This document shows, one piece after another, positions 17,258 through 52,608 of a stretch of DNA of 64,000 nucleotides; within the stretch, counting starts at the first letter, position 1, and every line of letters starts with the position of its first letter. The DNA comes from an uncultured delta proteobacterium (GTDB taxonomy: Bacteria > Myxococcota_A > Polyangia > Fen-1088), in assembly GCA_963796685.1 (NCBI GenBank), contig CAWCMR010000003.1, forward strand, positions 1 through 64,000, given 5' to 3'. Below the pieces are notes generated by a model. It was not told the DNA's origin. It worked only from the letters and a program-made list of their open reading frames with translations, and searched no databases. The position numbers were made by a program, and so were the translations under genes.

Positions 17258-17514
17258 GTCAGCATTAGCTCACGTCCCCTGTCAGGGTTGTGTCACGGAC
17301 GCGTCATTTTCGATGGGAGGCCTCGGCATCCGCCACCCGCCCTGCCACTCCCGCGCTGAGCGCGGCCTCGCCAAACCCTCGGCGACGGATGCACGCACCC
17401 AATCGGAGCGATGAGGGGTGGTCGTGGACGTAGACCCATCAGCGTCCACGAGCCTCTGCGGCTCTCGCGGGATGATGGCGCCGGGCGAAGCCTGGCTATG
17501 CCAACGCGATAAGT

Positions 17515-17766: not shown

Positions 17767-17773
17767 GCCTGGT

Positions 17774-18154
17774 CTACCAACGCTGCTTGCGTCCGCCGCC
17801 GAATCCACCACGATCGCCGCCGCCGCCGCCGCCGCCACCGCCGAATCCACCGCGACCGCCGCCGCCACCGCCGCCGAATCCGCCGCGACCGCCACCACCA
17901 CCCGTGCGCTCGCGCGCTTCACTGACCGCGATGGAACGGCCCTGCAGATCCTTGCCGTTCAGGTTTTCGATCGCGTTCTGTGCGCCGGCATCGGTCGCCA
18001 TCTCGACGAATGCAAAGCCACGTGGACGCCCGGTGTCTCGGTCGAGCACCAGCTTGACCTCGGCCACTTCATGTCCGGTCGCTACGAATGCGTCGCGCAG
18101 ATCCGCCTCGGTCGTCGAGTAGGACAAATTGCCAACATACAGTCTCTTTCCCAT
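17774..18154 (-). CDS. RRM RNA-binding protein with Gly-rich RGG tail
   Basis: RNP2 LYVGNL; RNP1 RGFAFVEM; GGRGGFGG tail; RBS AAGGAG. Confidence 0.95.
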   Translation of the reverse strand: MGKRLYVGNLSYSTTEADLRDAFVATGHEVAEVKLVLDRDTGRPRGFAFVEMATDAGAQNAIENLNGKDLQGRSIAVSEARERTGGGGGRGGFGGGGGGGRGGFGGGGGGGGGDRGGFGGGRKQRW

Positions 18155-18784
18155 CGGAATCTCCTTCGTTCTCTGCCAGGTTTCATTTTCCGTCGACTAC
18201 CCAGCAGCGGCCTTGGAGGAGCCTCAGACGGGAGACGATCAGCCGATTTAACTCAACAAGATTGGAATCGCTCGGACCGCGATCCGCTACGAGTCGCTTT
18301 GTTGTTTCTTATCGTCGTGGCCGAAGCCCGACGCGTCGTCACCCCTCGCGCTACATACGAACCGGTTCCAAGGTCAGGTCGACCCTGGTGAGTTAAGTCT
18401 ATGGGCAAGAGGATGGGGCTGCCCTGGGAAAAAGTCCAGGGGGTTGTGGAAGATTCTCTTGCGAAAGACGCATTGGGATATGAGTTGTCTGCAGAAGCCG
18501 ACTGAAGGTGATCTCGGGGATTTGGGCGCGTCACACGATGTTCTATTGCGTCGTTCGATTCTCGAAGTTTTCTTGTAACCAAAGTGATGATGCGACGCCT
18601 CGACAGTGGACAAGTGACCGTGCTTCCGGGTACCGTGCGCTTGAATTTCTCGCCGTGGCTACCGTGAAGACGTTCAAGGAGCAGCAAGGCCGGCCGAGCA
18701 GGAACGATCGAGTTTCCAGCCGCCGGACTGAAGCTTTGCGTGGGGCGGATGTCCGCGAACGGCAGCCTGAAAGGGACGCCAGCA

Positions 18785-19396
18785 ATGAGTAACATCGGAG
18801 CCGCAACCGCTCCGTCGAACCCAGGGGAGGGTCGCCAGCCGGCGGGAGGGCCAGCGGAACGCGTCGTCGTCGCGTTCGTTTGCGAGAACTGCTCGCGGGC
18901 CGGGCTGCTGCCGACTTCGGGATTCCGGCGTCGTCCGACCACGCCCGATTTCGCATGGCCTTTCCCGGTCAGCGAGGTGATCGCGCCGTGCGCTGGACGC
19001 TTGCAGCCCGAGCATCTCCTCAAGGCCTTCGAGGACGGCGTGGACGCGGTTGGCGTCATCTGCTGCGAGGAAGGCAACTGCCACCACCTCGAAGGCAACC
19101 TGCGCTGCGGTCGCCGCCTCGACTATGTGGGCGGGCTCCTCGATCAGATTGGCCTGGGGGCCAATCGCCTGATGGTCTTCCACCTGCCAGGATCGGCGAA
19201 GGAAGACATGGCCCTTGGCGTCGGCGCGACCGCGACCGTCGATCCAAACATTCCGGAGATGAATCGCAAGGTCGCGTCCGTGCGCGACGCGTTTGTCGCC
19301 CGCCTAGCAACCCTGACAGCCAACCCCGTGCGCAAGGGCGCCTTGCTCGACGAATCCCCCTACGAAGTGGACAGCGAAGATGAAAGCGACGAATAA
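18785..19396 (+). CDS. mvhD: MvhD/FlpD-family [2Fe-2S] subunit (copy 1)
   Basis: AFVCENC, PCAGRLQPEHLLKAFEDGVDAV, CEEGNCHHLEGN. Confidence 0.85.
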   Translation: MSNIGAATAPSNPGEGRQPAGGPAERVVVAFVCENCSRAGLLPTSGFRRRPTTPDFAWPFPVSEVIAPCAGRLQPEHLLKAFEDGVDAVGVICCEEGNCHHLEGNLRCGRRLDYVGGLLDQIGLGANRLMVFHLPGSAKEDMALGVGATATVDPNIPEMNRKVASVRDAFVARLATLTANPVRKGALLDESPYEVDSEDESDE

Positions 19397-20279
19397 ACTG
19401 GCCGAGAAATTGGGCAGCGGAAAGCTGGCGCTGACCGCCGCCTGCCTGCCCCCCCACGATGCCGACGCGGCGTCGGTGAAGAAGCTGGCGGGCTACTTTC
19501 CGGCCGCGCTCGACGGCGTGGTGGTTGCCGACAACCCGGGCAAGGTGCGTGGGTCGGCGCTGGCGTGTGCGGCGCTGTTGGCGGCGGAAAAGGTAGAGCC
19601 CATGCTCTCGCTCATCACGCGCGATCGCAATCGCATTGCGCTCGAATCGGACGTCCTTGGCGGCGCCGCTCTCGGCATCAAGAACTTCCTGTGCCTCACC
19701 GGCGCGCACCAGACGCTCGGCGCGGGCGCGCAGGCGGCGGGGGCCTTCGACATCGACTCGACCCAGCTTTGCCAAGCCCTGTCCAGGATGACCTCGCAAG
19801 GGGTCGACTTCGACGGCAACAAGCTTTCCTCTTCCCCGAATTTCGGTATTGCGGTTGCCGTACACCCGTATCTGCGGCCCATCGAGCTGTCCGTTCTGCA
19901 GCTCAAGAAGAAGATCGCGGCCGGGGCCCAGGTGCTCTTGACCGATCCCATCTTCGACGTGGCAGGCTTCGAGCAGTGGATGCAGGCCGTGCGCGCTGCC
20001 GGGCTCGACAAGAAGGCCGCCATCATCGCCAGCGTGATGCCCTTGCAGAGCGTCGCCCAGGCCGAATTCCTTGCGGCGCGTTCGGGCTTTGCTCCGATTG
20101 GCGACGAGGTCATCGGCCGGCTGAAGGGTGCCAGCGACCCTATTCAGGCCGGCATCGCCATCGTGGCCGAGATTGCGGGCAAAGTGAAAGCCATCGCGGG
20201 CGTGCGTGGCGTTCACATCCTCAGCGACGGTTGCGAGCAGTCGGTGGCCAAGATCATCCAGGAGGCGCGCCTGGCGTAA
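19380..20279 (+). CDS. metF: MetF (methylene-THF reductase)-family flavoprotein with substituted folate-site residues
   Basis: RDRNRIALESDVLGGAALGIKNFLCLTG, FDIDS and LKKKIAAGA are typical of MetVF-type MetF; but TAE>TAA, TGD>TGA and TQ>TD. Confidence 0.85.
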   Translation: MKATNKLAEKLGSGKLALTAACLPPHDADAASVKKLAGYFPAALDGVVVADNPGKVRGSALACAALLAAEKVEPMLSLITRDRNRIALESDVLGGAALGIKNFLCLTGAHQTLGAGAQAAGAFDIDSTQLCQALSRMTSQGVDFDGNKLSSSPNFGIAVAVHPYLRPIELSVLQLKKKIAAGAQVLLTDPIFDVAGFEQWMQAVRAAGLDKKAAIIASVMPLQSVAQAEFLAARSGFAPIGDEVIGRLKGASDPIQAGIAIVAEIAGKVKAIAGVRGVHILSDGCEQSVAKIIQEARLA

Positions 20280-20296
20280 GCCGGGCGGAGCTGCAC

Positions 20297-21694
20297 ATGC
20301 CCGACAAGTATCATGTCAAACCCGTGGCAACGCCCGGACGCTTCCGGCGCGTGGGCAAGTTCGGCAGCGTCGATTGGCGCGAAGACTGCTCGCGCTGCAC
20401 GAACTGCGTGAAGCCGCGCTGCGTGTACGACACCTATAAGAAGGAGGCGGCCTACAATCGCGATCCTTCGACCTCGGTGGTGCCGCTTTACGAATGCCGG
20501 GGGTGTCTTTCGTGCGTGCAGGGGTGCACCAAGGGCCTCTTGGCCATCGCGCTCAATCCGGAATACCTGGCGCTGGGGGACGAGTACTGGAAGCCCGACA
20601 TCCTGGCCACCACCTGGAACCAGGCCGACAGCGGTCGCATCCCGGTGTCCGGCGCGGGGTATCGCGGCCGCTACCACGGCCCGGGCTTCGACGGCATCTG
20701 GACCGACATGTCCGAGATCGTCCGGCCCACCCGGGACGGCATCCACGGCCGCGAGTACATCAGCACCAGCGTGGACATCGGGCCGAAGCCCATGCGCCTG
20801 ACCTTCACTCCCGACGGCAAGATGCTCAGCGAGCCGAGCGCGCTCATCGACCTGCCCATCCCGCTGATTCTGGACGTCCCGCCCTGGACCATCGGCGGAC
20901 AGGCCCTGACCAAGGCGCGGCTGGCGGCAGCCAAGGCGCTCAAAGCCCTGACCGTGGCCTCGGCCGCCGAGGTCGCGGGCGTCCCAGCCGATCAGTTGCC
21001 CCACCTGGTGCCGCTCTTGGGCGGCGAAGGACTGGGCGCCGCGGAGCCGATCCTGCGCCAGGTGCGCATGGCCGAATTCGTGGACGGGGCGCAGGCGCTG
21101 GACCTGGTCAAGAAGGCCAAGGGAATCCATCCCGGCCTGATCTGCGCCCTGCGCTTGCCCATGCAGACCTATGCCGCGGACCGGATTTTGGCGGCGAGCA
21201 AGGCCGGCGTGAAGGTGTTTCATCTGTGCGCGGATCAGCACGGCCAGGAGATCGGCGCGGAGAAGCCCCGCCACATCAAGGACGCCTTGCGCGAGATCCA
21301 CACCCGCCTGGTCAAGGAAGGCATGCGCGACGAGGTCACCCTGATCGTGTCGGGAGGCATCGCCCTGGCCGAGCACATGGCCAAGGCCATCATCTGCGGC
21401 GCGGATTTGGTGGCGGTCGACACGTCGTTGCTGGTGGCGCTGGGGTGTCGCGTGTGCCGCGGAGCCTCGGGGACGACGCATGTCGAGCAATGCGCGGCCG
21501 AGGCGGGCGATCTGGATCCGGTGTACGCGGCCCAGCGCATGGTCAACTTGATGGCCGCCTGGCACTCGCAGCTCATCGAGGTGCTGGGCGCCATGGGCAT
21601 CCGCGAGGTGCGGCGTCTGCGCGGCGAAGTCGGGCGCGCCATTTTCATGGAAGATATCGAACGGGAGGCTTTCGGTGACCTTGCCTGCAAGTAG
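20297..21694 (+). CDS. Glutamate synthase FMN-barrel-like subunit with N-terminal 2x[4Fe-4S]; degenerate active site
   Basis: CSRCTNC..C and CRGCLSCVQGC; GFDGIWTDMSEIVRPTRDGIHGREYIST; LIVSGGI; GAMGIREVRRLRG; lacks MS(F/Y)G and QGAKPG. Confidence 0.8.
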   Translation: MPDKYHVKPVATPGRFRRVGKFGSVDWREDCSRCTNCVKPRCVYDTYKKEAAYNRDPSTSVVPLYECRGCLSCVQGCTKGLLAIALNPEYLALGDEYWKPDILATTWNQADSGRIPVSGAGYRGRYHGPGFDGIWTDMSEIVRPTRDGIHGREYISTSVDIGPKPMRLTFTPDGKMLSEPSALIDLPIPLILDVPPWTIGGQALTKARLAAAKALKALTVASAAEVAGVPADQLPHLVPLLGGEGLGAAEPILRQVRMAEFVDGAQALDLVKKAKGIHPGLICALRLPMQTYAADRILAASKAGVKVFHLCADQHGQEIGAEKPRHIKDALREIHTRLVKEGMRDEVTLIVSGGIALAEHMAKAIICGADLVAVDTSLLVALGCRVCRGASGTTHVEQCAAEAGDLDPVYAAQRMVNLMAAWHSQLIEVLGAMGIREVRRLRGEVGRAIFMEDIEREAFGDLACK

Positions 21695-23243
21695 TGTTCA
21701 ACCAGCGACGGGCGCGGGAAAGGCCGGTGCAGGGCAACCCGTGATTTCGGCGGGCGGCGAGCCCCAGGTGACCGTGGAGCGCACGGTGCGGCCCATGCCC
21801 GACCGCTACCGCAACGCCCTCGGCAAATACAAGATTGGACGCTCGGCCGACTGCGTGGGCTGCGGCGACTGCGTCAAGCTGTGTCCCGAGGGCGTGCACG
21901 TCAAGCCCGACGGCTACACCTTTTCGCTGCGTCCGCGCGACCACCTCTGTATCGGGCCGGATTGCGCCAAGACCGAGCATTACTGCGTCGCCAAGTGCAC
22001 CAAGAAGGCGCTGTCTATAGCGCGCAACCCGACGGTGGACGCCATGGGCGATCCGCGCTGGACCTCGGATCTGATTCTCTCCACCTGGCACATGGCCGAA
22101 ACCGGGCACGCGCCGAAAGCGGGACTCGAGCACCGGGTGGGTGCCTCGGGCGGCGGGTTCGACCGCATCGGGTTCGACTTCCCTGCGGCGCCGCCCAAAG
22201 TCGATCCGGCGAAAGTCGACACCGGGCTCGATCTCAATCGGCGCAACGATGGCCGACCGCAGGTTCACATCGATCTGCCGGTGTACGGCGGTGGCATGTC
22301 ATTCGGCTCGGTCAGCATCCACACCATCCTGGCCAAGGCGCGCACCGCCGCCGCGTGGAACATCTTCACCTGCACCGGCGAGGGCGGCTACCACGACCGC
22401 TTGAAGCCCTACGACGACCACGTCATCACCCAGGTCGCCACCGGCCTGTTCGGCGTGCGCGAGGACACCATCCAGCGCGTGCGCATGGTCGAGTTCAAGT
22501 ACGCCCAGGGCGCCAAGCCCGGCCTCGGCGGCCACTTGCTCGGCGACAAGAACACCCCGGCGGTGGCGCGCATGCGCGAGGCCGTGGCGGGCAACGCCCT
22601 GTTCTCGCCCTTTCCGTTCCACAGCGTGTACAGCGTCGAGGATCACAAGAAGCACCTCGATTGGATCAAGGAGGTCAATCCCCGCGCCCTGGTCTCGGTG
22701 AAGGTGTCCACCCCGACGGACGTGGACATGGTCGCCGTGGGCAGCTACTACGCCGGCGCGCACATCATTCACCTCGACGGCAGCTATGGCGGCACAGGCG
22801 CCGCGCCCGACATCGCCAAGAAGAACATCGCCATGCCGCTCGAATACGCCATCGCCAAGGTGCACAAGTTCCTGGTCGCGGAAGGCATTCGCGATGGCGT
22901 CACCTTGATCGTCAGCGGCGGCGCGCGCACGGCCTGGGACGTGATGAAGGCCATCGCGCTCGGCGCCGACGGCGTGGTCATCGGTACCGCGGAAATGGTC
23001 GCCCTCGGTTGCGTGCGCTGCGCGTGCTGCGAGAGCGGTCGCGGCTGTCCGCGCGGCATCGCCAGCACCGACCCCGAACTGATGATGCTGATGAGCCTCG
23101 ACTGGGCCACGCAACGCTTGATCAACCTCATGTCGGCCTGGCGCGAGCAGATGGTCGAGATCCTGGTGAAGCTCGGTATCCCGAGCACGCGCGAGCTGCG
23201 TGGCCGCAGCGACGTCCTCACCTACGCCAAGGAGGCCGAGTGA
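21675..23243 (+). CDS. gltB: Glutamate synthase FMN-binding subunit (archaeal/split GltB2 type) with ferredoxin domain
   Basis: CVGCGDCVKLCP; GGMSFGSVS; TGEGG; QVATGLFGV; EFKYAQGAKPGLGGHL; CVRCACCESGRGCPRGIA. Confidence 0.88.
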   Translation: MTLPASSVQPATGAGKAGAGQPVISAGGEPQVTVERTVRPMPDRYRNALGKYKIGRSADCVGCGDCVKLCPEGVHVKPDGYTFSLRPRDHLCIGPDCAKTEHYCVAKCTKKALSIARNPTVDAMGDPRWTSDLILSTWHMAETGHAPKAGLEHRVGASGGGFDRIGFDFPAAPPKVDPAKVDTGLDLNRRNDGRPQVHIDLPVYGGGMSFGSVSIHTILAKARTAAAWNIFTCTGEGGYHDRLKPYDDHVITQVATGLFGVREDTIQRVRMVEFKYAQGAKPGLGGHLLGDKNTPAVARMREAVAGNALFSPFPFHSVYSVEDHKKHLDWIKEVNPRALVSVKVSTPTDVDMVAVGSYYAGAHIIHLDGSYGGTGAAPDIAKKNIAMPLEYAIAKVHKFLVAEGIRDGVTLIVSGGARTAWDVMKAIALGADGVVIGTAEMVALGCVRCACCESGRGCPRGIASTDPELMMLMSLDWATQRLINLMSAWREQMVEILVKLGIPSTRELRGRSDVLTYAKEAE

Positions 23244-26077
23244 TGCGCGACCTGCCGGAACAGGTTCTAGCGACTCGCAGCCAGGTGTATGAGGAGGGCG
23301 ATCGCGTTGGCGGAGCCGGGCTTTGCCCGGCGGAGCCAGAGCGCGGGAGGGCACGGGAACCCTCCGAGGGTTCCCGTGTAGATCGCGTTGGCGGAGCCGG
23401 GCTTTGCCCGGCGGAGCCAGAGCGCGGGAGGGCACGGGAACCCTCCGAGGGTTCCCGTGTAGATCGCGTTGGCGGAGCCGGGCTTTGCCCGGCGGAGCCA
23501 GAGCGCGGGAGGGCACGGGAACCCTCCGAGGGTTCCCGTGTAGAGGAGGGTGGCTGCGGCGTCACGGGGTTTGCTTGCAACATTCCCGTGCGCGGCAAGT
23601 TCATCCACGAGCCGTCCATTCAAATGCAGAACCGCGGCAACGGCAAGGGTGGCGGTATCGCGGCGGCGGGCCTGGTGCCCGAGCAGGTCGGGGTCTCGCG
23701 CGACGTGCTCGACTCGCACTACCTGCTGCAGATCGCGCTGTTGGATCCGTCGGCGGACAACGAGGTCGAGCAAAAGTTCGTGCTGCCGCATTTCGATGTC
23801 GCCCTGTCGACCAAGCAGGAGCACCTCGACGATCACCGCGACATTCCCGGCCTCGACGTGCGACCGCCCGACATTCACCGCTACGTCGTACGGGTCAAGC
23901 CCGCGGTGCTGAAGGCTTTCGGCGAATCGAATGGCCTCGGCAAGCTGTCTCCGCGCGACCTGGAAGACGAATTCGTGTGGCGTAATTCGTACCGCTTGAA
24001 CGACACCCTGTACGCCTCGCTCGGCGAGAAGCGAGCCTTCGTGCTGTCGCACGGCCGCGACCAACTGGTGTTCAAGCTGGTCGGCTACGCCGAGCAGAAC
24101 GTCGAGTACTACAAGCTCGAGGATTTCAAGGCCCACGTCTGGATCGCCCACCAGCGCTATCCGACGAAGGGGCGCGTGTGGCACCCCGGCGGTGCGCACC
24201 CGTTCGTGGGGATCAACGAGGCTCTGGTCCACAATGGCGACTTCGCCAACTACCACTCGGTCTGCGAATACCTGCGCCAACGCAACATCAAGCAGCAGTT
24301 CCTGACCGACACCGAGGTGTCGGCGCAGCTCTTCGATCTGTGGGATCGCGTCTACAAGTACCCGCTGGAATACATCATCGAGGCCCTGGCGCCCACCACC
24401 GAGCTGGACTTCGACCAGCTGCCCAAGGACAAGCAGCGCATCTACCGCGAGATCCAGGCCACCCACATCCACGCCTCGCCCGACGGGCCGTGGTTCTTCA
24501 TCATCGCGCGCAACCATCCCGATCTCCATCGCATGCAGCTCCTTGGCATCACGGACACGGCCATGCTGCGGCCGCAGGTGTTCGCGCTCTCGGACAGTGG
24601 CGACGTGCAGATCGGCCTTATTTGCTCGGAGAAGCAGGCCATCGACGCTACCTTGCGCGGACTGTCGCGCGAGGATCCGCGCTTCTCGCCCGTGGCCGAT
24701 CGCTACTGGAACGCGCGCGGCGGCAGCAGCAGCGACGGAGGCGCCTTCATCTTCACGGTGACGGGAGACGAGGGAAAGAAGAAGCTGACTTGCGCCGACA
24801 AGTTCGGCCGGCAGGTCAAGCTCGACATCGGCAAGGTCCGTTGCGATCAGCCGAAATCGGCGCCGCTGGTGGAGATCGTCTCGGCCGGCATCCGCAAGGC
24901 GATCGCCGAGTCGCTCAAGCAGGGCAGGGCGCACGATCTCTACACCCACGTGGTGCGGAGCCTCCCGGGATGGCCCGCCGCCGGTCTGCGCGAGCTGTGC
25001 GAGCAGATCGTCGCAGCGGCCGATAACGGCCGCGCCAAGGCCACCGCCATCGAGGCGCTGACCTTGCTCTACGACCGCCGCTACGACACCGGCGACAAGC
25101 GCCGCGCCACCGTCCTGCCCGTGCTCGAAGAGACGCTGATGCGCCTGTTCGACGCCACGCCACTCATCGGTGAGCCCGGAGAAGGCACGTTCCGACGGTT
25201 CCATTGGGACAGTCGGAACAACATCGAAGCGCCCAAGCCTGGCGAAGAGATCCTGGTCATCGACGCGGAGAAGTTTCCGCCCGAGGGTGACGACTGCGAT
25301 GCCGTGTACCTGCGCAAGGCCTATGAGGCCGGTTGGAAGCGCTTCATCGTGTACCGCCTGCGCGGTCAGCGCTTCACCGGCGTCGGCCTTGGCCCGAGCA
25401 CCCACGGCGTGCGCATCGACACCTACGGGTCGAGCGGCGACTACCTGGCGAGTGGCATGGACGGCGAGGAGATCTATGTCCACGGCAATGCCCAGGATCA
25501 GGTCGGCCAGATCGCCAAGCAGGGCAAGCTGGTCATCTACGGCGACGTGGGTCAGACCTTCATGTACGGCGCCAAGGGCGGCGACGTCTTCATCATGGGC
25601 AATGGCGCGGGCCGGCCGCTCATCAATGCCGTCGGTCGTCCGCGCGTGGTCATCAACGGCACCTGCCTCGACTTTCTTGCCGAGTCGTTCATGGCCGGCG
25701 ATCCGCTCAATGGCGGCGGATTCGTCATCCTGAACGGGGTGGAATTCGACGGCCACGCCAAGCTGGTGCCGCTGGCCTCGCCCTACCCGGGCAGCAACCT
25801 GTTCTCGCTCGCCTCGGGCGGCGCCATCTATGTGCGCGACCCGGACAAGAAGGTGGTCGAACAGCAATTGAACGGCGGCGTGTTCGCGGCCTTCACGGGC
25901 GCCGACTGGCGCCTGATTCGAGCCTACTTGGAAGAGAACGAGCGCTTGTTCGGCATCAACGTGCAGGACCTACTGACCGTGAACGGCAAGTTGTGCGAGC
26001 CCGAGCAGGTGTATCGCAAAGTCAGCGCGCAGGCGCTGGCGGTGCTGGCGGCCGCGACCAAGGAGTCGAAGAAATGA
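23243..26077 (+). CDS. Glutamate synthase amidotransferase (class II Ntn) + GXGXG domain fusion (GltB1/GltB3)
   Basis: TGATG overlap; EEGG-CGV nucleophile Cys at 23555; HQRYPT; HPF; HNGD; TDTE; C-terminal GSSGDYLASGMDG...GDVGQTFMYGAKGG beta-helix. Confidence 0.88.
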   Translation: MRDLPEQVLATRSQVYEEGDRVGGAGLCPAEPERGRAREPSEGSRVDRVGGAGLCPAEPERGRAREPSEGSRVDRVGGAGLCPAEPERGRAREPSEGSRVEEGGCGVTGFACNIPVRGKFIHEPSIQMQNRGNGKGGGIAAAGLVPEQVGVSRDVLDSHYLLQIALLDPSADNEVEQKFVLPHFDVALSTKQEHLDDHRDIPGLDVRPPDIHRYVVRVKPAVLKAFGESNGLGKLSPRDLEDEFVWRNSYRLNDTLYASLGEKRAFVLSHGRDQLVFKLVGYAEQNVEYYKLEDFKAHVWIAHQRYPTKGRVWHPGGAHPFVGINEALVHNGDFANYHSVCEYLRQRNIKQQFLTDTEVSAQLFDLWDRVYKYPLEYIIEALAPTTELDFDQLPKDKQRIYREIQATHIHASPDGPWFFIIARNHPDLHRMQLLGITDTAMLRPQVFALSDSGDVQIGLICSEKQAIDATLRGLSREDPRFSPVADRYWNARGGSSSDGGAFIFTVTGDEGKKKLTCADKFGRQVKLDIGKVRCDQPKSAPLVEIVSAGIRKAIAESLKQGRAHDLYTHVVRSLPGWPAAGLRELCEQIVAAADNGRAKATAIEALTLLYDRRYDTGDKRRATVLPVLEETLMRLFDATPLIGEPGEGTFRRFHWDSRNNIEAPKPGEEILVIDAEKFPPEGDDCDAVYLRKAYEAGWKRFIVYRLRGQRFTGVGLGPSTHGVRIDTYGSSGDYLASGMDGEEIYVHGNAQDQVGQIAKQGKLVIYGDVGQTFMYGAKGGDVFIMGNGAGRPLINAVGRPRVVINGTCLDFLAESFMAGDPLNGGGFVILNGVEFDGHAKLVPLASPYPGSNLFSLASGGAIYVRDPDKKVVEQQLNGGVFAAFTGADWRLIRAYLEENERLFGINVQDLLTVNGKLCEPEQVYRKVSAQALAVLAAATKESKK
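23300..23542 (+). repeat. Three identical tandem 81-bp palindromic units inside the CDS
   Basis: Units start at 23300, 23381 and 23462. Each has hairpins GCCGGGC-TTT-GCCCGGC and CACGGGAACCCT-CCG-AGGGTTCCCGTG. GAGGAGGG flanks both sides. Confidence 0.95.
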
Positions 26078-26640
26078 CCATGACCCTGGCAGCAGGCGAA
26101 ATGTCCGGGGACTTCGCTGCGCAAGTCGAAGCTGAAAGCCACGCCAATTTGATGGCGTGCCTGCAGTGCAAGAAGTGCACTTCGGGTTGCCCGGTGGCCG
26201 CGGTTGCCGACGTCAAGCCGCACGAAATGGTGCGCATGGTGCAGTTCGGTCAGCGCGACGAAGTGCTGACGAGCAAGATGCTCTGGCAGTGTACCTCGTG
26301 CCAGACCTGCGCCACCCGCTGCCCGCAGAAGGTCAGCGTGGCCGCGCTCAACGACGGCCTGCGCCGCATGAGCGCCCGGGCCAAGGCGCGCAGCAAGGGC
26401 GCGGTCCCGACCTTCAACAGGATCTTCATGAAGGCGGTGCGCGAGCGCGGGCGCATGAACGAAGCGGGCCTCATGGCCTCGTTCAAGCTGCGCACCGGTC
26501 GGCTGTTCGAGGACATGGGCAAGCTGCCCATGATGCTCCTCAAGGGCAAGATGCCGCTGTGGCAGGCGGCGTCGCCGGGCCGCGGCGAGCGCGAGGCGAT
26601 GTTCGACCGCGCGGCCAAAGCGAAGGGCAGCAAGTCATGA
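26074..26640 (+). CDS. hdrC: Heterodisulfide reductase subunit C-like
   Basis: CLQCKKCTSGCP and LWQCTSCQTCATRCP; ATGA overlap with the upstream gene. Confidence 0.9.
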   Translation: MTMTLAAGEMSGDFAAQVEAESHANLMACLQCKKCTSGCPVAAVADVKPHEMVRMVQFGQRDEVLTSKMLWQCTSCQTCATRCPQKVSVAALNDGLRRMSARAKARSKGAVPTFNRIFMKAVRERGRMNEAGLMASFKLRTGRLFEDMGKLPMMLLKGKMPLWQAASPGRGEREAMFDRAAKAKGSKS

Positions 26641-26972
26641 CCGCCCGGAGTTTTTTCACCACAGAGGGCACAGAGAGCACAGAGACGGACCGGAGGGAAA
26701 GAAATGGTCGAATCCGGATCCGGATCCGGAGAACCCATCCCCTTCCGGCCTCTGTTGACCTGTCCATGAATTGGACAGGTCGACGGAAGCCGAGCCAAAG
26801 GCTCGGCCGCAGGTGGGGTGAAGTCCGCGAATTCACTTCGCGGACGAGGGGCGGGCCGCGGCCCGCCCCTTTGAAATCTTCAAGACGGGTCCATTTATGG
26901 ACACGTCTTGTGTCCTCTGTGCTCTCTGTGGTTCATCATCCGGATCGCACCACGAAAGGCGGTGCTTCGTGA
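26637..26972 (+). CDS. Possible 111-aa translational-coupling ORF spanning the hdrC-hdrB insertion
   Basis: Its ATG overlaps the hdrC stop (ATGA 26637-26640) and its TGA overlaps the hdrB start (GTGA 26969-26972); no recognisable domain. Confidence 0.3.
   Translation: MTARSFFTTEGTESTETDRRERNGRIRIRIRRTHPLPASVDLSMNWTGRRKPSQRLGRRWGEVREFTSRTRGGPRPAPLKSSRRVHLWTRLVSSVLSVVHHPDRTTKGGAS
26658..26932. mobile_element. MITE-like/structured element with CACAGAG-type terminal inverted repeats and six internal palindromes
   Basis: Left end ACCACAGAGGGCACAGAG matches the reverse complement of the right end, ACCACAGAGAGCACAGAG (17/18). Stems at 26713-30, 26757-81, 26789-807, 26823-45, 26847-70 and 26881-910. 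Confidence 0.7.
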
Positions 26973-27835
26973 GCTACGCGTTCTTCCCGGGTTGTAGTAT
27001 GGAAGGCACGGCGCACGACTATCAGAAGTCGACGGTGGCGGTGAGCAAGGTGCTGGGGCTGGAATTGCCCGAGATTCCCGGGTGGACTTGTTGCGGCTCG
27101 ACCTCGGCACACCAGACGGACCACCTGTTGTCGCTGGCTCTGCCGGCCAAGAACCTGGTCGCCGCCGAGGGCAAGCCCGTGGCCGTGGGGTGCGCCGCCT
27201 GTTACAGCCGCCTGAAGACCGCCAACTACGAAATCGCCAACGACGAGCAAACGCGCAAGTCCGTGGCCGGCGTCGTCGGCAAGGACTACGACGGCAAGAC
27301 CGAGATCCTGCACCTGCTCGAGATCCTGGCCCGCGACGTCGGCATGAAGAAGATTGCCGAGGCGACGAAGAAGCCGCTCAAGGGACTCAAGCTGGTCACC
27401 TACTACGGCTGCCTGCTCTCGCGACCGCCCGAGGTTACCAAGTTCGACGACCCGGAAAACCCGACGCTGATGGATCAGGTGCTGGAGGCCGCGGGCGCGA
27501 CCATCCTCGAATGGCCGCACAAGACCGAGTGCTGCGGCGCCGGGTATTCGATCACCGACGTCACCATCGTCAAGAAGCTCACGCGCGAAATCCTGGCCAT
27601 GGCCAAGGCCGCCGGTGCCGACTGCATCGCGACGGCGTGTCCGCTGTGCCAGCTCAATCTCGATTTGCGCCAGAAGGATACGGAAGAGGCATCCGGCGAA
27701 CGGTTCAACCTGCCGGTGTTCTATTTCACGCAGTTGCTGGGCCTGGCCTTCGGCCTTTCCCGCAAAGAATTGGGCCTGCGCAGCCTGGTGGTCAGCCCCA
27801 AGAAGCTCTTGGCCGACCGTGGAATTGGTGTTTGA
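26969..27835 (+). CDS. hdrB: Heterodisulfide reductase subunit B-like (two CCG domains)
   Basis: FFPGC...WTCCGS...CAACY and YYGC...ECCGAG...ACPLCQLNL; GTG start. Confidence 0.92.
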   Translation: MSYAFFPGCSMEGTAHDYQKSTVAVSKVLGLELPEIPGWTCCGSTSAHQTDHLLSLALPAKNLVAAEGKPVAVGCAACYSRLKTANYEIANDEQTRKSVAGVVGKDYDGKTEILHLLEILARDVGMKKIAEATKKPLKGLKLVTYYGCLLSRPPEVTKFDDPENPTLMDQVLEAAGATILEWPHKTECCGAGYSITDVTIVKKLTREILAMAKAAGADCIATACPLCQLNLDLRQKDTEEASGERFNLPVFYFTQLLGLAFGLSRKELGLRSLVVSPKKLLADRGIGV

Positions 27836-27844
27836 GGCAAGACG

Positions 27845-30800
27845 ATGAGCGAACAGGGCAAACCCACGAATGGTAATTCCACCAAAGCCCCCGAGGCGGT
27901 CGGCGCGGTCATGGTGTGTGGCGCCGGCATCACCGGCATTCAGGCGTCGCTCGATTTGGCCGAATCCGGGTTCAAGGTCTATCTCGTCGAACAGTCGGCG
28001 GCCATCGGTGGCCGCATGGCCCAGCTCGACAAGACCTTTCCCACCGGCGACTGCGCCATGTGCATTCTCTCGCCCAAATTGGTCGAGTGCGCGCGCAACA
28101 AGAACATCGACATCATCACCCTGGCCGACATCGAAGGCATCAGCGGCGAGGTCGGCAACTTCGAGGTGAAGCTGCGCCAGCGCCCCCGTTACATCGACCT
28201 GAGCAAGTGCAACGCCTGTGGCGATTGCGCCATCGCGTGTCCGGTGTCGCTTCCGAACGAATTTGACCGCGCCCTCGGCACGCGCAAGGCCGTGTTCCGT
28301 CCCTACGCGCAGGCCATTCCCAACGTCTTCGGCATTTCCAAGGCCGAAGGCATGGCCCCGTGCAAAGCGGCCTGCCCGGCCGGCGTCAACGCCCAGGGCT
28401 ACGTCGCCTTGATCGCGGCCGGCAAGTTCGAGGAGGCCTACGAGCTGGTCAAAGAGCGCTGCCCGCTGCCGGCGGTGTGCGGCCGCATCTGCCAGCACCC
28501 GTGCGAAGGCCAGTGCAACCGCAAGGATCTCGACGAGCCCGTGGCCGTGCGCGACCTCAAGCGCTTCGCCGCCGATTTCGTCTACGCCAAGCGCGACAAG
28601 AAGACGCGTGCCCCTTTCCAGCCGGTCAAAATCCAGAAGGAGAAGGTCGCTGTCATTGGCGGTGGTCCGGCCGGTCTCACCGCCGCGCAGGATCTGACCA
28701 AACAGGGCTACCCGGTGACCCTGTTCGAATCGCGTCCATTCTTGGGCGGCATGCTTCGTCTGGGCGTGCCCGCGTACCGTCTGCCGCGCGACGTGCTCGA
28801 CTACGAGATCGAGCAGATCCTCAACGAGCGGGTCGAGGTGAAGCTCGGCGCGAAGCTGGGCAACGGGCCGAAAGACATCACCATCGAGGGGCTCAAGAGG
28901 GACGGCTTCTCGGCCATCTTCGTGGCCACGGGCGCGCACAAGAGCCAGAAGATGGGTCTGCCCGGCGACGACGTGACCGGCGTGATGTACGGCCTCGACT
29001 TCCTCGTGGGCGTGAACCTGGGCGAGAAGGGGTCGCGTGGGGAGCGGCGAGCTTTGCTCGACGCGGACCATCGCGGGAGGGTTGGGGAACCCTCCCAGGG
29101 GTCCCCTGTTGAGATCGGCAAGAAGACCGTCGTCGTGGGCGGCGGCAACGTGGCCATGGATGCCGCGCGCGCGGCCCTGCGCATGGGCGCCAAGGAAGTC
29201 ACGGTGGTCTACCGCCGCAGCCGCGTGGAAATGCCGGCTTTGCCCGAAGAGATCGTGCAAGCGGAAGAAGAGGGCGTGAAGCTCGAGCTGTTGACCAATC
29301 CCATCAAGGTGATTGCCAGCAATGGCCGGGCAATCGGGCTCGAGTGCTTGCGCATGAAGCTGGGCGAGCCCGATGCCTCGGGGCGCCGCCGTCCGGTTCC
29401 CGTCGAGGGCTCCAATTTCACCGTCGCCGCCGACAACGTCATCATCGCCATCGGCCAGACCGCCGATATCGAAGGCGTGCCGCTGGAAAGCGGGAAGATC
29501 GCCGCCGACGGATCCCTGGCCACCAAGGTTCCCGGCGTGTTCGCCGGCGGCGATGTGGTGCTCGGCCCTGCCTCCTTGGTCGAGGCCATGGCCCATGGCC
29601 ACCACGCGGCCGCCGCGATTCACGCCTTCCTGCGCGGCCAGCCCATGCCGGTGCTCGAAACCGCGACGAAAGCCACCGCACCCAACCCCAACCCGGCGGC
29701 CGAGTCGGTCGCCAAGCAGGCCATGAAGAAGATCGTGGTCGAGGACCGCACGCGCGACTTCCGCGAGATCGAGCTCGGCTACACTGCCGAGGAAGCCATG
29801 GCCGAGGCCAAGCGCTGCCTCGCTTGCGGTCTGTGCAGCGAGTGCGGGCTGTGCGTGAAGGCCTGCGGCCCCGGCGCCATCGTGCACGACATGCAGCCCA
29901 AGTCGGAATCCATCCGCGTGGGCTCGGTCATCCTTACCCCCGGCTACGAGGAGTTCCAGGCTAGCCTGCGCGGCGAGTTCGGGCACGGCCGCTACGCCAA
30001 TGTGCTTTCCAGCGTGCAGTTCGAGCGCATGCTGAGCGCGTCCGGTCCCACGGAAGGCCACGTGCAGCGGCCGTCCGACGGCAAGCCGGTGAAGAAGATC
30101 GCCTTCATCCAGTGCGTAGGCTCGCGCGACAGCGCCCGCGGCAACGGCTACTGCTCGTCCATCTGTTGCATGTCCGCGACCAAGGAGGCCATGGTCGCGC
30201 TCGAGCACGTGCAAGGGCTCGATATCTCCATCTTCTGCATGGACGTGCGCGCCTTCGGCAAGGAGTTCGACGGCTACGTCAACCGCGCTCGCGACGAGCA
30301 CGGCGTGAAGTACATCCGCGCCATGCCCTCGCGCGTGGTGGAAATGCCTGGCAGCAAGAACGCCCGGGTGCGCTTCTTCGACGAGAAGGGCGACGAGCAC
30401 CAGGACGAATACGACCTGGTCGTTCTGTCGGTCGGCCTGCGCCCGAGCGCTTCGGTCAAAGACACCGCAGCCAAGCTCGGCCTGGATCTGAATTCATTCG
30501 GGTTCTGCCAGACCGATCGTCTGGCGCCCATGGCGGCGTCCAAGCCCGGCATCTACGTGGCCGGCGCCTTCCAAGAGCCGAAGGACATTCCCGAATCGGT
30601 GGCGCAAGCCTCGGGCGCCGCCGCCTGCGCGATGGAGAAGCTATCTCTCGCGCGCGGCACCCTGATCAAACGCCACGAGTACCCGTGGGAGCGTGACGTC
30701 ACCGACGAGAAGGCACGCATCGGCATCTTCATCTGCCACTGCGGCCACAACATCGCCTCGGTCGTCGACGTGAAGAAGGTGGCCGAAGCCGCCGGCAAGA

Positions 30801-32389
30801 TGCCGGGCATCGCGCACGCCGAAACCAACCTGTACGCGTGCTCGGACACCAGCCAGCAGCACATCAAGGACGTGATCCGCGAAAAGCGGCTCAACCGCCT
30901 GGTGGTTGCGTCGTGCTCGCCGCGCACCCACGAGGTGCTTTTCCAAGAGACCCTGCGCGAGTCGGGCCTCAACCAATATCTCTTCGCCATGACCAACATC
31001 CGCGACCAGTGCTCGTGGGTGCACAAGAACGATCCCGAGGCCGCGACCGAGAAGGCCACGGACCTCATGCGCATGGCCGTGGCGCGCGCGCGCAACCTCA
31101 AGGCGCTGGGCACGGGCAAGCTGCCGGTGGTGCAATCGGCGCTGGTGCTGGGGGGCGGCCTGGCCGGCATGACCACCGCGCTGGCGCTCGGCGACCAAGG
31201 CTTCGCCGTGCACCTGTGCGAAAAGGAAGCGGTGCTGGGCGGGCAACTGCGCAATATTCGCTATACGCTCGAAGGCTCGGACGTCGCCGGCTTCTTGACC
31301 GAGCTCATCGCGCGGGTCGAGAAGCACCCCAAGATCACGCTGCACTTGCGGACCAAGCCGGTCCAAATCACGGGCCACGTGGGCAACTTCAAGACCCGCC
31401 TGGACGAGGCCGGCAAAGAGCAGACCATCAGCCACGGCGTCATCGTGCTGGCGGTCGGCGGTCAGGAACGCCAGACGGATTTGTATCTCAACGGCAAACA
31501 CCCCGGCGTCATGACCCAGCGCCAGCTCGAAGAGAAGTTGGCCCCAAAGACCTTGGCTGGCTCCGAGTCTCCGTCCATCGTTATGATCCAGTGCGTGGAC
31601 AGCCGCAACGACGCGCACCCGTATTGCAGCCGCGTGTGCTGCTCGGCGGCCATCAAGAACGCACTCGAGCTGAAGAAGCAAAAGCCCAAGGCCAAGGTGA
31701 TCGTCCTGTACAAGGACATCCGCACCTACGGTTTCCGCGAGTTGGCCTACCAGCAGGCGCGCGAGGCGGGTGTGCTCTTCATTCGCTACGACGACAAACA
31801 GGATCCCGTGGTCAGCGACAAGGGGGGGCTGGCGGTCGACGTCGTCGACGCCAGCAACGGTCGAGAAATCACCTTCAAGCCCGACCTGGTGGTTCTGTCG
31901 ACCGGCATCGCACCGGCCGCCGACAATCCGGTCATCTCGGGTCTTCTGCGCAGCGCCTTGACCGCCGATGGCTTCTTCCTGGAAGCCCATCCCAAGCTGC
32001 GCCCGGTGGATCTGGCGAACGAAGGCGAGTTCATCGCCGGGCTCTGCCACTCGCCGCGCTTCATCGACGAGACCATCGCACAGGCCAAGGCCGTGGCCGG
32101 GCGCGCAGCCACGGTCTTGTCGCGCGCTTTCCTCGATATCGCCGGCCAGGTGGCCAAGGTCGACCCCACCGACTGCGTGGCCTGCGCCACCTGCGTGAAG
32201 GTGTGTCCGTACGGCGCACCCATGATCAACGACTTGCACAAGGCCGAAATCCAAGTTGCCAAGTGCATGGGCTGCGGCTCGTGCACGGCGGCCTGCCCGG
32301 CCCATACCATCACCCTGCAACACCAGGAATGCACCCAAGTGACCGCCATGCTCGACGAATTGCTCGTCGGTGAAGGAGCCGCGCAATGA
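27845..32389 (+). CDS. hdrA: Large HdrA (HdrL-type): HdrA + GltD-like NAD(P)H oxidoreductase module + second HdrA module
   Basis: GGRMAQLDKTFPTGDCAMC; PCKAACP...CGRICQHPCEGQCNR; GGGPAG; GGGNVAMD...YRRS; two HdrA cores (IQCVGSRD...YCSSICC..ATK and IQCVDSRN...YCSRVCC..AIK); C-terminal ferredoxin. Confidence 0.92.
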   Translation: MSEQGKPTNGNSTKAPEAVGAVMVCGAGITGIQASLDLAESGFKVYLVEQSAAIGGRMAQLDKTFPTGDCAMCILSPKLVECARNKNIDIITLADIEGISGEVGNFEVKLRQRPRYIDLSKCNACGDCAIACPVSLPNEFDRALGTRKAVFRPYAQAIPNVFGISKAEGMAPCKAACPAGVNAQGYVALIAAGKFEEAYELVKERCPLPAVCGRICQHPCEGQCNRKDLDEPVAVRDLKRFAADFVYAKRDKKTRAPFQPVKIQKEKVAVIGGGPAGLTAAQDLTKQGYPVTLFESRPFLGGMLRLGVPAYRLPRDVLDYEIEQILNERVEVKLGAKLGNGPKDITIEGLKRDGFSAIFVATGAHKSQKMGLPGDDVTGVMYGLDFLVGVNLGEKGSRGERRALLDADHRGRVGEPSQGSPVEIGKKTVVVGGGNVAMDAARAALRMGAKEVTVVYRRSRVEMPALPEEIVQAEEEGVKLELLTNPIKVIASNGRAIGLECLRMKLGEPDASGRRRPVPVEGSNFTVAADNVIIAIGQTADIEGVPLESGKIAADGSLATKVPGVFAGGDVVLGPASLVEAMAHGHHAAAAIHAFLRGQPMPVLETATKATAPNPNPAAESVAKQAMKKIVVEDRTRDFREIELGYTAEEAMAEAKRCLACGLCSECGLCVKACGPGAIVHDMQPKSESIRVGSVILTPGYEEFQASLRGEFGHGRYANVLSSVQFERMLSASGPTEGHVQRPSDGKPVKKIAFIQCVGSRDSARGNGYCSSICCMSATKEAMVALEHVQGLDISIFCMDVRAFGKEFDGYVNRARDEHGVKYIRAMPSRVVEMPGSKNARVRFFDEKGDEHQDEYDLVVLSVGLRPSASVKDTAAKLGLDLNSFGFCQTDRLAPMAASKPGIYVAGAFQEPKDIPESVAQASGAAACAMEKLSLARGTLIKRHEYPWERDVTDEKARIGIFICHCGHNIASVVDVKKVAEAAGKMPGIAHAETNLYACSDTSQQHIKDVIREKRLNRLVVASCSPRTHEVLFQETLRESGLNQYLFAMTNIRDQCSWVHKNDPEAATEKATDLMRMAVARARNLKALGTGKLPVVQSALVLGGGLAGMTTALALGDQGFAVHLCEKEAVLGGQLRNIRYTLEGSDVAGFLTELIARVEKHPKITLHLRTKPVQITGHVGNFKTRLDEAGKEQTISHGVIVLAVGGQERQTDLYLNGKHPGVMTQRQLEEKLAPKTLAGSESPSIVMIQCVDSRNDAHPYCSRVCCSAAIKNALELKKQKPKAKVIVLYKDIRTYGFRELAYQQAREAGVLFIRYDDKQDPVVSDKGGLAVDVVDASNGREITFKPDLVVLSTGIAPAADNPVISGLLRSALTADGFFLEAHPKLRPVDLANEGEFIAGLCHSPRFIDETIAQAKAVAGRAATVLSRAFLDIAGQVAKVDPTDCVACATCVKVCPYGAPMINDLHKAEIQVAKCMGCGSCTAACPAHTITLQHQECTQVTAMLDELLVGEGAAQ
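29030..29107 (+). repeat. In-frame 78-bp palindromic insertion homologous to the 81-bp unit
   Basis: Shares TCGCGT, xGxGC-TTT-GCxCG, CGCGGGAGGG and GGGAACCCTCCxAGGGxTCCC with the 23300 unit; adds 26 aa between VNLGEK and VEIGKK. Confidence 0.8.
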
Positions 32390-32856
32390 GCGAGCTTGTC
32401 CCCCAGACGACGACCAGGCCCAAATCGGCCGGCAACGACCAATGGGAGCCGGAGATCATCGCCTTCTGCTGCAACTTCTGCGCCTACGCAGCCGCCGACC
32501 TGGCCGGCTCGCGCCGCATGCAATACCCGTCCAACGTGCGCGTGATGCACGTGCCTTGCACCGGCAAGATCGAAATGGAGCACATCCTGTCGGCCTTCGA
32601 AAAGGGCATCGACGGAGTGCTCATCGCCGGGTGCCTGGAAGGCGGTTGCCACTTTCTGGAAGGTAATCTGCGCGCCAAGAAGCGCAGCGAGTATTTGCGC
32701 GAGATGCTGGACCAGATCGGCGTGGGCCGCGAGCGCCTGCGCATGGTCAACCTGTCGGCCGCCGAGGCGCCGACCTTCGTCAAGCGCGTGAAGGAAATCG
32801 TCGAGACCGTGAAAGGCCTGGGTCCGAATCCCCTGAGAAAGAGTGGAACGCCATGA
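32386..32856 (+). CDS. mvhD: MvhD/FlpD-family [2Fe-2S] subunit (copy 2)
   Basis: IIAFCCNFCAYAAADLAG; VPCTGK; GCLEGGCHFLEGN. Confidence 0.94.
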   Translation: MSELVPQTTTRPKSAGNDQWEPEIIAFCCNFCAYAAADLAGSRRMQYPSNVRVMHVPCTGKIEMEHILSAFEKGIDGVLIAGCLEGGCHFLEGNLRAKKRSEYLREMLDQIGVGRERLRMVNLSAAEAPTFVKRVKEIVETVKGLGPNPLRKSGTP

Positions 32857-33521
32857 TCGTCGCCAGCCCCAAACCCGTCACCGAGCTGAAACAACTCATC
32901 GACCGGCACAAGAAGGTGCTGTTCGTCGGCTGCGGCACCTGCGTGACCGTGTGCCTGGCCGGCGGCGAGCGTGAAGTCGGCATCGCCGGCTACGCCACGC
33001 GCATGGCGCGCAAACTCTCCGGCCAACCCATCGAGCTGGAGCAAGTCACCATCGAGCGCCAGTGCGAAAACGAGTTCATCAAGGATCTGGCCGACCCCAT
33101 CGCGCGCGCCGAGGCCGTGGTCTCGTTCGGCTGCGGGGCCGGGGTGCAAGCCATCGCCGAGCGCTTCCCCAACAAACCCGTCTACGCCGGCCTCAACACC
33201 AACTTCCTCGGCATCCTGGAAGAGCAAGCCGTGTGGACGGAGAAGTGCATGGCCTGCGGCGACTGCATGCTGGCCGAATTCGGCGGCATCTGCCCCGTCA
33301 CCCGCTGCGCGAAGCACATGCTCAACGGCCCGTGCGGCGGCAGCACGACCGATAGGTGCGAGGTCGCGGAAGATCGTCCGTGCGCGTGGCAGCTCATCTA
33401 CAAGCGCCTGAGCGCCATCGGCCAGCTCGACCGCCTGGAAAAGATCCAGCCGCCCAAGAACTGGAGCCTGGCGTGGTTCGGCGGGGCGCGCAAGCTGGTG
33501 CGGAACGAGCACCGGGTTTAG
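32853..33521 (+). CDS. metV: MetV (methylene-THF reductase small Fe-S/Zn subunit)
   Basis: VGCGTCVTVCLAGG; ERQCENEF; GCGAGVQ; EKCMACGDC...GICPVTRCAKHMLNGPCGG...CAWQLIY. Confidence 0.9.
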   Translation: MIVASPKPVTELKQLIDRHKKVLFVGCGTCVTVCLAGGEREVGIAGYATRMARKLSGQPIELEQVTIERQCENEFIKDLADPIARAEAVVSFGCGAGVQAIAERFPNKPVYAGLNTNFLGILEEQAVWTEKCMACGDCMLAEFGGICPVTRCAKHMLNGPCGGSTTDRCEVAEDRPCAWQLIYKRLSAIGQLDRLEKIQPPKNWSLAWFGGARKLVRNEHRV

Positions 33522-34319: not shown

Positions 34320-34323
34320 CCGC

Positions 34324-52607: not shown

Positions 52608-52608
52608 G

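Follow-up and report, generated by a model that had tools for sequence, protein, structure and literature searches.

Retention of a MetF-fold protein without its three folate residues in an operon encoding MetV, Hdr and glutamate-synthase-like proteins

Why would bacteria keep, under purifying selection, a homologue of methylene-tetrahydrofolate reductase (MTHFR, or MetF) in which all three residues of the folate site have been replaced? This question is raised by a gene in a 64,000-nucleotide stretch of DNA from an uncultured delta proteobacterium, placed by GTDB in Myxococcota_A, Polyangia, Fen-1088 (assembly GCA_963796685.1, contig CAWCMR010000003.1, positions 1 to 64,000 of the forward strand; hereafter the window). 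The gene (19380..20279, + strand) is the second of a ten-gene operon (18740-33521) that also encodes MetV, Hdr, MvhD and glutamate-synthase-like proteins. An initial annotation, made from the sequence of the window, had described it as a MetF homologue without the equivalents of E. coli Glu28, Asp120 and Gln183, repurposed as a flavin electron carrier or as an enzyme for another substrate, and still paired with an intact MetV. Here we describe the evidence for a reading to which we give about an even chance, namely that the protein, a MetF no longer active on folate, persists as the subunit that docks MetV, possibly still bearing flavin, in an Hdr-linked complex resembling glutamate synthase.

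The frame is intact from ATG to TAA and encodes a protein of 299 amino acids that has the MTHFR fold. It scores 74 bits with the Pfam family PF02219 (MTHFR; cut-off 24), and an AlphaFold2 model built from 125 aligned sequences is an eight-stranded barrel with a mean predicted local distance difference test (pLDDT) of 94.8. In a Foldseek search of the PDB, the top matches of this model are all MTHFRs, with template-modelling (TM) scores of 0.66-0.75, and every cluster retrieved from the ESM Atlas is likewise MTHFR. The MetF-like protein thus shares fold and Pfam family with the E. coli and Thermus enzymes (MetF, dependent on flavin adenine dinucleotide), but it is only ~17-21% identical to them and belongs to the MetV-associated subfamily carrying the RDRNR motif. 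All NCBIfam scores fall below their cut-offs. The best is PRK08645, the reductase half of the bifunctional YitJ type (156.4 bits versus 453), and the equivalogs TIGR00676 (47.2 versus 293.7), TIGR00677 (39.3 versus 310) and PRK09432 (26.2 versus 382) score lower.

Three independent alignments were used to set the column equivalences of Ala21 (codon GCC at 19440-19442, followed by TGC for Cys22), Ala109 (GCG at 19704-19706, followed by CAC for His110) and Asp189 (GAT at 19944-19946). A family search of the assembly found two other MetF proteins elsewhere in the genome, one of E. coli type (308 bits) and one of acetogen/YitJ type (132 bits), both with the full triad; a second, canonical metF had been suggested as something to look for. 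In a MAFFT alignment of the three proteins, Ala21 shares its column with the Glu of FSFEFFPP and TTEVGAP; Ala109 is matched by the Asp of LRGD and LAGD, and Asp189 by the Gln of ITQ and QTQ. The same three columns emerge when a 125-member profile of the family is aligned with Thermus MTHFR chains. Finally, a pairwise HMMER alignment to E. coli MetF chains, which bears on the Gln183 region, sets LLTDP on AITQF and KKIAAGA on KRKVDAGA. Judged by these alignments, Ala21, Ala109 and Asp189 are the equivalents of Glu28, Asp120 and Gln183, as the initial annotation had it: no acidic residue stands at position 21 or 109 and no Gln at 189, and none of the residues expected of a competent MTHFR (the general-acid Glu, the pterin-binding Asp and the pterin-binding Gln) is present.

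What these residues do has been reported for E. coli MTHFR. According to the available passages of PMC11094777, ~0.01% of kcat remains in Glu28Gln; in Asp120Asn kcat is down to 0.3% and Km is up more than 40-fold; and Km rises more than 250-fold in both Gln183Glu and Gln183Ala, with kcat retained in Gln183Glu. Passages of the same paper and of PMC11868366 describe the equivalent Glu as essential also in the flavin-independent Mfr and in Mer, enzymes with unrelated cofactors. Because the general-acid Glu and the two pterin-binding residues are gone, we infer that folate chemistry has been lost and that the triad-less protein would no longer reduce methylene-tetrahydrofolate.

The triad-less state is shared by a large group of proteins. 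A word-indexed protein search gave 1052 matches at E <= 1e-5, the best 120 of which are 63-91% identical to the MetF-like protein, and 150 further, more distant proteins from a representative protein search were added to the joint alignment. The variant group in this alignment comprises 116 full-length sequences (270 amino acids or more, query included). At position 21 they have Ala (101), Gly (14) or Thr (1), and Glu in no case; at position 109 they have Ala (76), Met (24), Val (7), Thr (5), Asp (3) or Ser (1), Asp being absent in 113 of 116. Asp189 and Cys22 are each found in 116/116. RDRNR and K178/A181-G182-A183, which had been noted as intact and taken for flavin-scaffold motifs, are intact in the MetF-like protein and in 100% of the variant clade, and the positions invariant throughout the family are likewise kept in the MetF-like protein (R81-R85, D51, K178, G182, T188 and H279).

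Among reference genomes, orthologues at least 64% identical occur in nine of the 12 others in the same genus and in all five from a second genus. Across the family, 14 of 60 genomes have one, and the open frame is intact in 13 of those 14; a sample of 400 other genomes from the phylum gave no match closer than 39% identity. Titled records of relatives are metagenome-assembled genomes labelled Myxococcales bacterium or uncultured delta proteobacterium. In five pairwise orthologue comparisons, the ratio of nonsynonymous to synonymous substitution rates (dN/dS) of the gene is 0.07-0.23, within the range of the other nine operon genes. The triad-less state is conserved and under purifying selection. 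In one genome of the second genus (G447:C12:120981-121869) the gene is in two overlapping pieces, covering residues 2-150 and 136-299, which may reflect a frameshift or an assembly error.

Conservation of this kind bears directly on the suspicion that the gene has no function and is decaying, or that its sequence is an artefact of sequencing or assembly. Three catalytic residues are gone together, and the genome is a 7.3 Mb draft in 26 contigs, 88.6% complete with 6.5% contamination. The conservation data contradict this suspicion, to which we give next to no credence: the same state recurs in 116 sequences from many assemblies, the frame is intact in all but one of the 14 related genomes, and dN/dS is low. 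In addition, the Ala109 codon is two base changes from any Asp codon, from which the initial annotation had argued against a read error.

The same alignments show how far the change extends. Nine positions conserved in all other groups are changed in the variant clade compared with its sister group: E21, G71, D109, G158, R174, L175, F185, Q189 and E257. Five of them are now variable in the variant clade, namely 21 (A/G/T), 109 (A/M/V/T/D/S), 175, 185 and 257, whereas K71 (from G), A158 (from G) and Q174 (from R) are new near-invariant residues. Such variability is more what one expects of a lost ligand site than of one that has been re-tuned. Cys22, Cys63, His162 and Cys285 are invariant in the variant clade and also present in the triad-bearing sister group, so they do not belong to the change. 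We considered that Cys22, Cys63 and Cys285 might form a metal or Fe-S site together with His162 and Asp189, but dropped the idea, as the Cys and His residues are common to that sister group.

Could the protein still be a methylene-tetrahydrofolate reductase that works through other residues, for example with Asp189 as acid or pterin ligand, perhaps together with residues of MetV? One acidic residue has been gained, at a pterin-binding column, for two that were lost, E. coli Gln183Glu retains kcat (PMC11094777, available passages), and the MetV partner is intact. We nevertheless consider such a reductase very improbable. The Glu at the first position is present in all 80 complete homologues at least 33% identical that we recovered from metagenome loci (an 81st row ends before that column) and in both paralogues of the genome, and its replacement nearly kills activity in three reductase families, according to the passages of PMC11094777. 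Positions 21 and 109 vary, six further conserved positions are changed, and the MTHFR equivalog scores lie far under their cut-offs.

The operon encodes, in order, MvhD1, the MetF-like protein, a degenerate GltB-FMN protein, a GltB-FMN protein, GATase with GXGXG, HdrC, HdrB, HdrA with a GltD insert, MvhD2 and MetV, all on the + strand. Synteny of the whole set of ten is seen in four related genomes, drawn from two genera, and holds in four more loci to the ends of their available DNA. The first gene (18740..19396) had been taken for metV, which is incorrect: it encodes an MvhD-like Fe-S protein of 218 amino acids as called (PF02662, FlpD, 78 bits over residues 43-157). It overlaps the start of the MetF-like frame by 17 bases and has an orthologue directly upstream of the MetF-like gene in eight related loci (L004-L007, L037, L039, L041 and L042).

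Three glutamate-synthase-like genes follow. GltB-like A (20297..21694) is a degenerate paralogue of the flavin mononucleotide (FMN) domain of GltB with an Fer4 N-terminus. Only the C-terminal part of its barrel is recognisable by Pfam (Glu_synthase profile positions 258-368 only, 56.6 bits), and in BLASTP it is 26-31% identical to GltB-like B over the aligned stretches, with YAQGAKPGLGG and GSYGGTGAAP replaced. By these features it would be a second pseudoenzyme-like subunit of the operon. Though degenerate, it is kept in every group of loci linked to glutamate-synthase-like genes (hereafter Glt-linked). GltB-like B (21675..23243) is an FMN-domain protein with an N-terminal 4Fe-4S ferredoxin domain, of the split, archaeal-like type (PF01645, 305.5 bits). 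It scores 176 bits with the large chain of NADPH glutamate synthase (PDB entries 2vdc/1ea0), in an alignment that includes AQGAKPG, GGTGA and a Cys-rich stretch. The third gene (23243..26077) encodes a class-II, N-terminal nucleophile (Ntn) glutamine amidotransferase fused to GXGXG (Pfam GATase_6 and GXGXG). Its conserved part begins near 23540 with EEGGCGVTGF, and EEGGCGV(T/V)GF stands behind a leader of ~30 amino acids in nine of ten related loci, the excerpt of the tenth (L007) showing repeat copies only. By analogy with known Ntn amidotransferases, we take the Cys of this motif to be the nucleophile and the leader to be cleaved. With the amidotransferase Cys, an FMN domain bearing AQGAKPG and GGTGA, and GXGXG all in place, the module may be read as a real glutamate synthase of unusual build.

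The remaining genes encode electron-transfer proteins. The HdrC-like 4Fe-4S dicluster protein (26074..26640) scores 56-64 bits with NCBIfam HdrC models, below their cut-offs, and matches Pfam Fer4_17/8/9; the HdrB-like protein (26897..27835 as annotated) has two Pfam CCG domains and 204.8 bits with TIGR03288, below the cut-off of 345. HdrA (27845..32389, 1514 amino acids) carries, by Pfam, an inserted GltD/NfnB-like module made of Fer4_20 and an NAD(P)-binding Pyr_redox_2. MvhD2 (32386..32856) has 156 amino acids and 162 bits with Pfam FlpD.

MetV (32853..33521, 222 amino acids), an MTHFR C-terminal, zinc-ribbon-like Fe-S protein, closes the operon. It is the sole match to PF12225 in the genome (126.6 bits) and is intact: every Cys invariant in 42 MetV sequences is present, plus NGPCGG, and the protein is 83-97% identical in four related genomes. 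To model the pair, MetV and the MetF-like protein were folded together with FMN included and compared with three controls. The complex model scored 0.84, a predicted confidence of the model, against 0.25 for the best control. The mark that it passes is passed by 116 of 157 solved complexes and by two of 215 mismatched pairs, counts that are only a rough guide here, as our own alignments and an FMN ligand were used. Runs share at least 93% of contacts, with partner pLDDT of at least 92. Because no MetV chain was found in our copy of the PDB, the pass does not come from a solved MetVF structure.

On the MetV side, the predicted interface is formed by the C-terminal part bearing NGPCGG (residues 153-171 and 195-204), and these interface residues are identical to those of MetVs paired with triad-bearing MetFs. 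On the other side, it is formed by the catalytic face of the barrel (residues 81, 85, 107-110, 123-129, 160, 162, 174 and 189), with R81 and R85 of RDRNR inside the interface. The model supports binding of MetV by the MetF-like protein. The earlier proposal of a pairing with an intact MetV therefore stands in part: MetV is intact, lies in the same operon and is predicted to bind, but it is not the neighbouring gene.

How does this operon compare with known systems? One close likeness is to the six-subunit MetFV-HdrABC-MvhD complex of Moorella thermoacetica, described with its gene cluster in passages of PMC9012536 and PMC8515935. HdrC, HdrB, HdrA, MvhD and MetV follow each other here in that order, and the operon co-encodes HdrA, HdrB, HdrC and MvhD as Moorella-type loci do; many metagenome loci with a full-triad MetF have this Moorella-type layout. 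In contrast to the Moorella cluster, no metF follows metV here; the operon's only MetF-fold gene lies at its other end, behind a second MvhD gene, and is without the triad. Three glutamate-synthase-like genes are inserted, and an acetyl-CoA synthase (CdhC) gene was not found in this 88.6%-complete genome. The ferredoxin-dependent, heterodimeric MetFV of Clostridium ljungdahlii shares the MetF barrel and a MetV Fe-S subunit with NGPCGG, but the local MetF-fold protein is without its three folate residues.

The glutamate-synthase-like genes and HdrA have parallels of their own. A split glutamate synthase is an arrangement typical of archaea. The operon resembles the archaeal-like split enzyme and bacterial GltB/GltD in its FMN-domain protein with a ferredoxin N-terminus, Ntn amidotransferase, GXGXG and GltD-like NAD(P)H module, and differs from both in that the GltD-like module is inserted in HdrA, that an extra, degenerate FMN-domain paralogue is present, and that HdrBC, two MvhD, MetV and a MetF-fold protein are co-encoded. 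An HdrA with a GltD-type fusion has been named HdrL (PMC2702500) and type III HdrA (PMC12054007), and the local HdrA, with Fer4_20 and Pyr_redox_2 inside the HdrA frame, resembles it; the available passages of these two papers make no link to glutamate-synthase large-subunit genes or to a triad-less MetF. Likewise, exact-word matching in open-access full text found no paper, among the passages it covers, linking MetV/MetF to glutamate-synthase large-subunit genes or describing a triad-less MetF. The classification of MetFV in PMC8515935, as given in its available passages, comprises an E. coli type, two-, three- and six-subunit types and a NuoEFG-linked type.

Whether the change goes with Glt linkage was examined in a metagenome scan for which intermediate forms served as seeds. 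The scan returned 80 loci, in which 88 MetF-fold matches were classed by tblastn with the window proteins and re-alignment; seven below 33% identity were set apart as a divergent group, leaving 81. Among the 30 Glt-linked homologues, 19 have the full triad, 11 are changed at the Asp and/or Gln (Asp to Tyr or His, Gln to His or Arg), and none is without the Glu. The 51 non-Glt-linked homologues comprise 50 with the full triad and one that is truncated. Departures from the triad in this sample are confined to Glt-linked loci (11/30 versus 0/50 complete non-Glt), and the expectation that Glt-linked MetF homologues would form one clade sharing the changes is not borne out.

In a quick IQ-TREE tree of the 81 rows, with an E. 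coli-type outgroup on a long branch, the variant clade has Shimodaira-Hasegawa-like approximate likelihood-ratio test (SH-aLRT) support of 99. It lies inside a clade with support of 98, which takes in P0126 as well (Glu, Thr and Asp at the three columns, and thus intermediate in appearance) together with a sister group of 11 rows. Members of the sister group share 48-60% identity with the query and retain Glu/Asp/Gln; ten of the rows are Glt-linked with the full triad, and the contig of the eleventh is too short to show linkage either way. In the sister group the genes run MvhD-MetF-GltA-GltB-GATase-HdrC-HdrB-HdrA, the loci ending inside hdrA. A second Glt-linked group, elsewhere on the tree, has Asp replaced by Tyr or His, with the order GATase-HdrCBA-MvhD-MetV-MvhD-MetF-GltA-GltB in L069. 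A third has the order MvhD-MetV-MetF-GltA-GltB-GATase and the full triad, with no Hdr genes detected, and is nested among Moorella-type MetVF. On this tree, Glt linkage is older and wider than the triple loss, a derived condition confined to one sublineage. With the triad present in every other group and in the distant outgroup, parsimony favours loss as the direction of change wherever the root exactly lies.

The seven low-identity matches are a separate matter. In five Moorella-type loci, a second, very divergent MetF-fold gene precedes hdrA (L074:1126-1992, L080:3406-4272, L085:3407-4273, L088:3478-4335 and L109:3337-4212); these are 26-31% identical to the query, and keep the Glu while their Asp and Gln columns differ. 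The two further matches (L076:11582-12451 and L077:8167-9030) keep the Asp.

Taken at its widest, the linkage suggests a broader statement about the operon, which we hold tentatively. The operon would encode an undescribed class of glutamate synthase fed with electrons via MetV/MetF and an Hdr-type core (HdrABC with the GltD insert, and the two MvhD) that may bifurcate electrons by means of flavin. Older versions (MvhD-MetV-MetF-Glt, triad intact) would have coupled methyl- or methylene-tetrahydrofolate chemistry, or other redox chemistry mediated by MetF, to the synthesis of glutamate, and the present MetF would be either a pseudoenzyme relic of this coupling or an enzyme for a new substrate.

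For the MetF-like protein itself, the reading that we give an even chance can be put as follows. Purifying selection would keep it as a MetV-binding subunit of a multi-subunit redox enzyme built from the ten-gene operon. The glutamate-synthase-like module would be the catalytic acceptor, the GltD insert of HdrA would be the entry point for NAD(P)H, and bifurcation of electrons in the Hdr core is possible, going by the Hdr family; passages of PMC9012536 present MetFV-Hdr complexes as candidate electron-bifurcating enzymes with a second substrate still unidentified. The Hdr, MvhD, MetV and MetF-like proteins would together form the electron-handling part of an unusually built glutamate synthase. 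In line with a glutamate-synthase role, five of six examined loci from two distant Glt-linked groups adjoin Amt, P-II, glutamine synthetase, GlnD or GlnE genes. In the variant lineage, the MetF site would have become dispensable and then decayed. The two full-triad MetF proteins elsewhere in the genome provide redundancy, which we count in favour of this reading, as we do the restriction of triad changes to Glt-linked homologues in the metagenome sample. Entry of NAD(P)H at the GltD insert was considered as a sufficient cause of the decay and rejected, since the triad persists in Moorella-type loci whose HdrA is of this kind.

Several observations weigh against this reading. In the sister group the gene order is the same over the whole extent of its loci and the full triad is kept, so the operon alone does not make the MetF site dispensable. 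The alignments behind the complex model include full-triad homologues, and its pass may reflect the family rather than this copy. Counts from the metagenome scan are not an unbiased sample, since its seeds were intermediate forms. Nitrogen-assimilation genes were not found flanking the operon in the window, nor next to the two examined sister-group loci, which have divergent LysR regulators instead, and a conventional large GltB, with an open frame of 1621 amino acids, is encoded in the genome as well. Finally, the invariant Asp189 and the newly near-invariant K71, A158 and Q174 could mark a new function instead of decay.

This last point leads to the main rival, which we think unlikely but weigh seriously: a neofunctionalised enzyme, that is, a MetV-fed flavin barrel acting on a non-folate substrate (e.g., another iminium or N-methyl compound) in an enlarged, less charged pocket. 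Besides the four residues just named, it can point to strong purifying selection, to invariant Cys22, His110, His162 and Cys285 at or just after the C-terminal ends of barrel strands in the AlphaFold2 model, and to changes from large or charged to small residues (E to A/G, F185 to V/I, L175 to T/A and E257 to A). Yet the former substrate-contact positions 21, 109, 175, 185 and 257 vary, with Met at 109 in 24 of 116 sequences, which is unusual for a defined pocket. Cys22, Cys63, His162 and Cys285 are common to the triad-bearing sister group and so are not tied to the change, while His110, His162, Gln174 and Asp189 lie in the predicted MetV interface, which could explain their conservation. Nor do the operon genes hint at another substrate. 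The repurposing proposed by the initial annotation is thus upheld insofar as all three residues are replaced in a conserved, selected clade; the subunit itself may carry electrons on a flavin, play a structural part alone or act as an enzyme on another substrate.

Some further features of the operon and its surroundings deserve mention. The amidotransferase leader contains, in frame, a perfect 81-base tandem repeat of 3.0 copies (23300..23544, + strand), which is missing in L004 and present in more copies in L007. Each unit contains the palindrome GGGAACCCTC-S-GAGGGTTCCC, found at 70 places per strand in the genome and at none in a reversed control, with one diverged copy inside hdrA (29085-29105). 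It looks like a repetitive extragenic palindromic (REP)-like element tolerated inside coding regions. In L004, a related metagenome-assembled genome, the MetF-like gene (L004:10001-10981) is lengthened in frame by 28 residues, inserted in a loop close to residue 253 (alignment length 327 versus 299), and the inserted peptide resembles a translation of the same palindromic element. Between hdrC and hdrB, ~330 bases (26635-26966) have long terminal inverted repeats, and contigs of relatives skip them, joining 26634 to 26967 in two RNA-library contigs and one DNA contig. This segment looks like a miniature inverted-repeat transposable element (MITE)-like insertion; it probably contains the annotated start of HdrB (26897), and the true start is probably near 26969.

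As to expression, contigs from two metatranscriptome runs span 30/30 operon bins at at least 85% likeness, these being contigs of relatives in which DNA carry-over is possible; no sequencing run contains more than 0.17 of the sampled words. Matches to the sigma-54 promoter consensus number 47 in the window versus 31 expected, with none in the upstream region 18155-18740, and an Rfam search (E <= 1) over 17000-35000 gave chance-level matches only, with neither riboswitch nor leader among them. The gene immediately upstream of the operon, which lies on the opposite strand, encodes an RRM-domain RNA-binding protein with a Gly-rich tail (17774-18154). Elsewhere, the window encodes a VgrG-like type VI secretion spike (6-2225; Phage_GPD and Gp5_C), a NorB-like protein (40441-42789; COX1 and a NorB cytochrome c-like domain) and a 2-oxoacid:ferredoxin oxidoreductase pair (52122-54222).

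Nature has run an experiment in this family: the same operon occurs with an intact MetF site in the sister group, with a partly changed one, and with a fully stripped one in the variant clade. A biochemical comparison of the intact, partial and stripped forms would reveal the role of the MetF subunit beyond folate chemistry. In addition, the occurrence of MetV/MetF and Hdr genes together with those of a split glutamate synthase, near Amt, P-II and glutamine synthetase genes in some lineages, points to an unrecognised electron route for nitrogen assimilation. Such an electron supply would concern bacteria of soil, peat and sediment.

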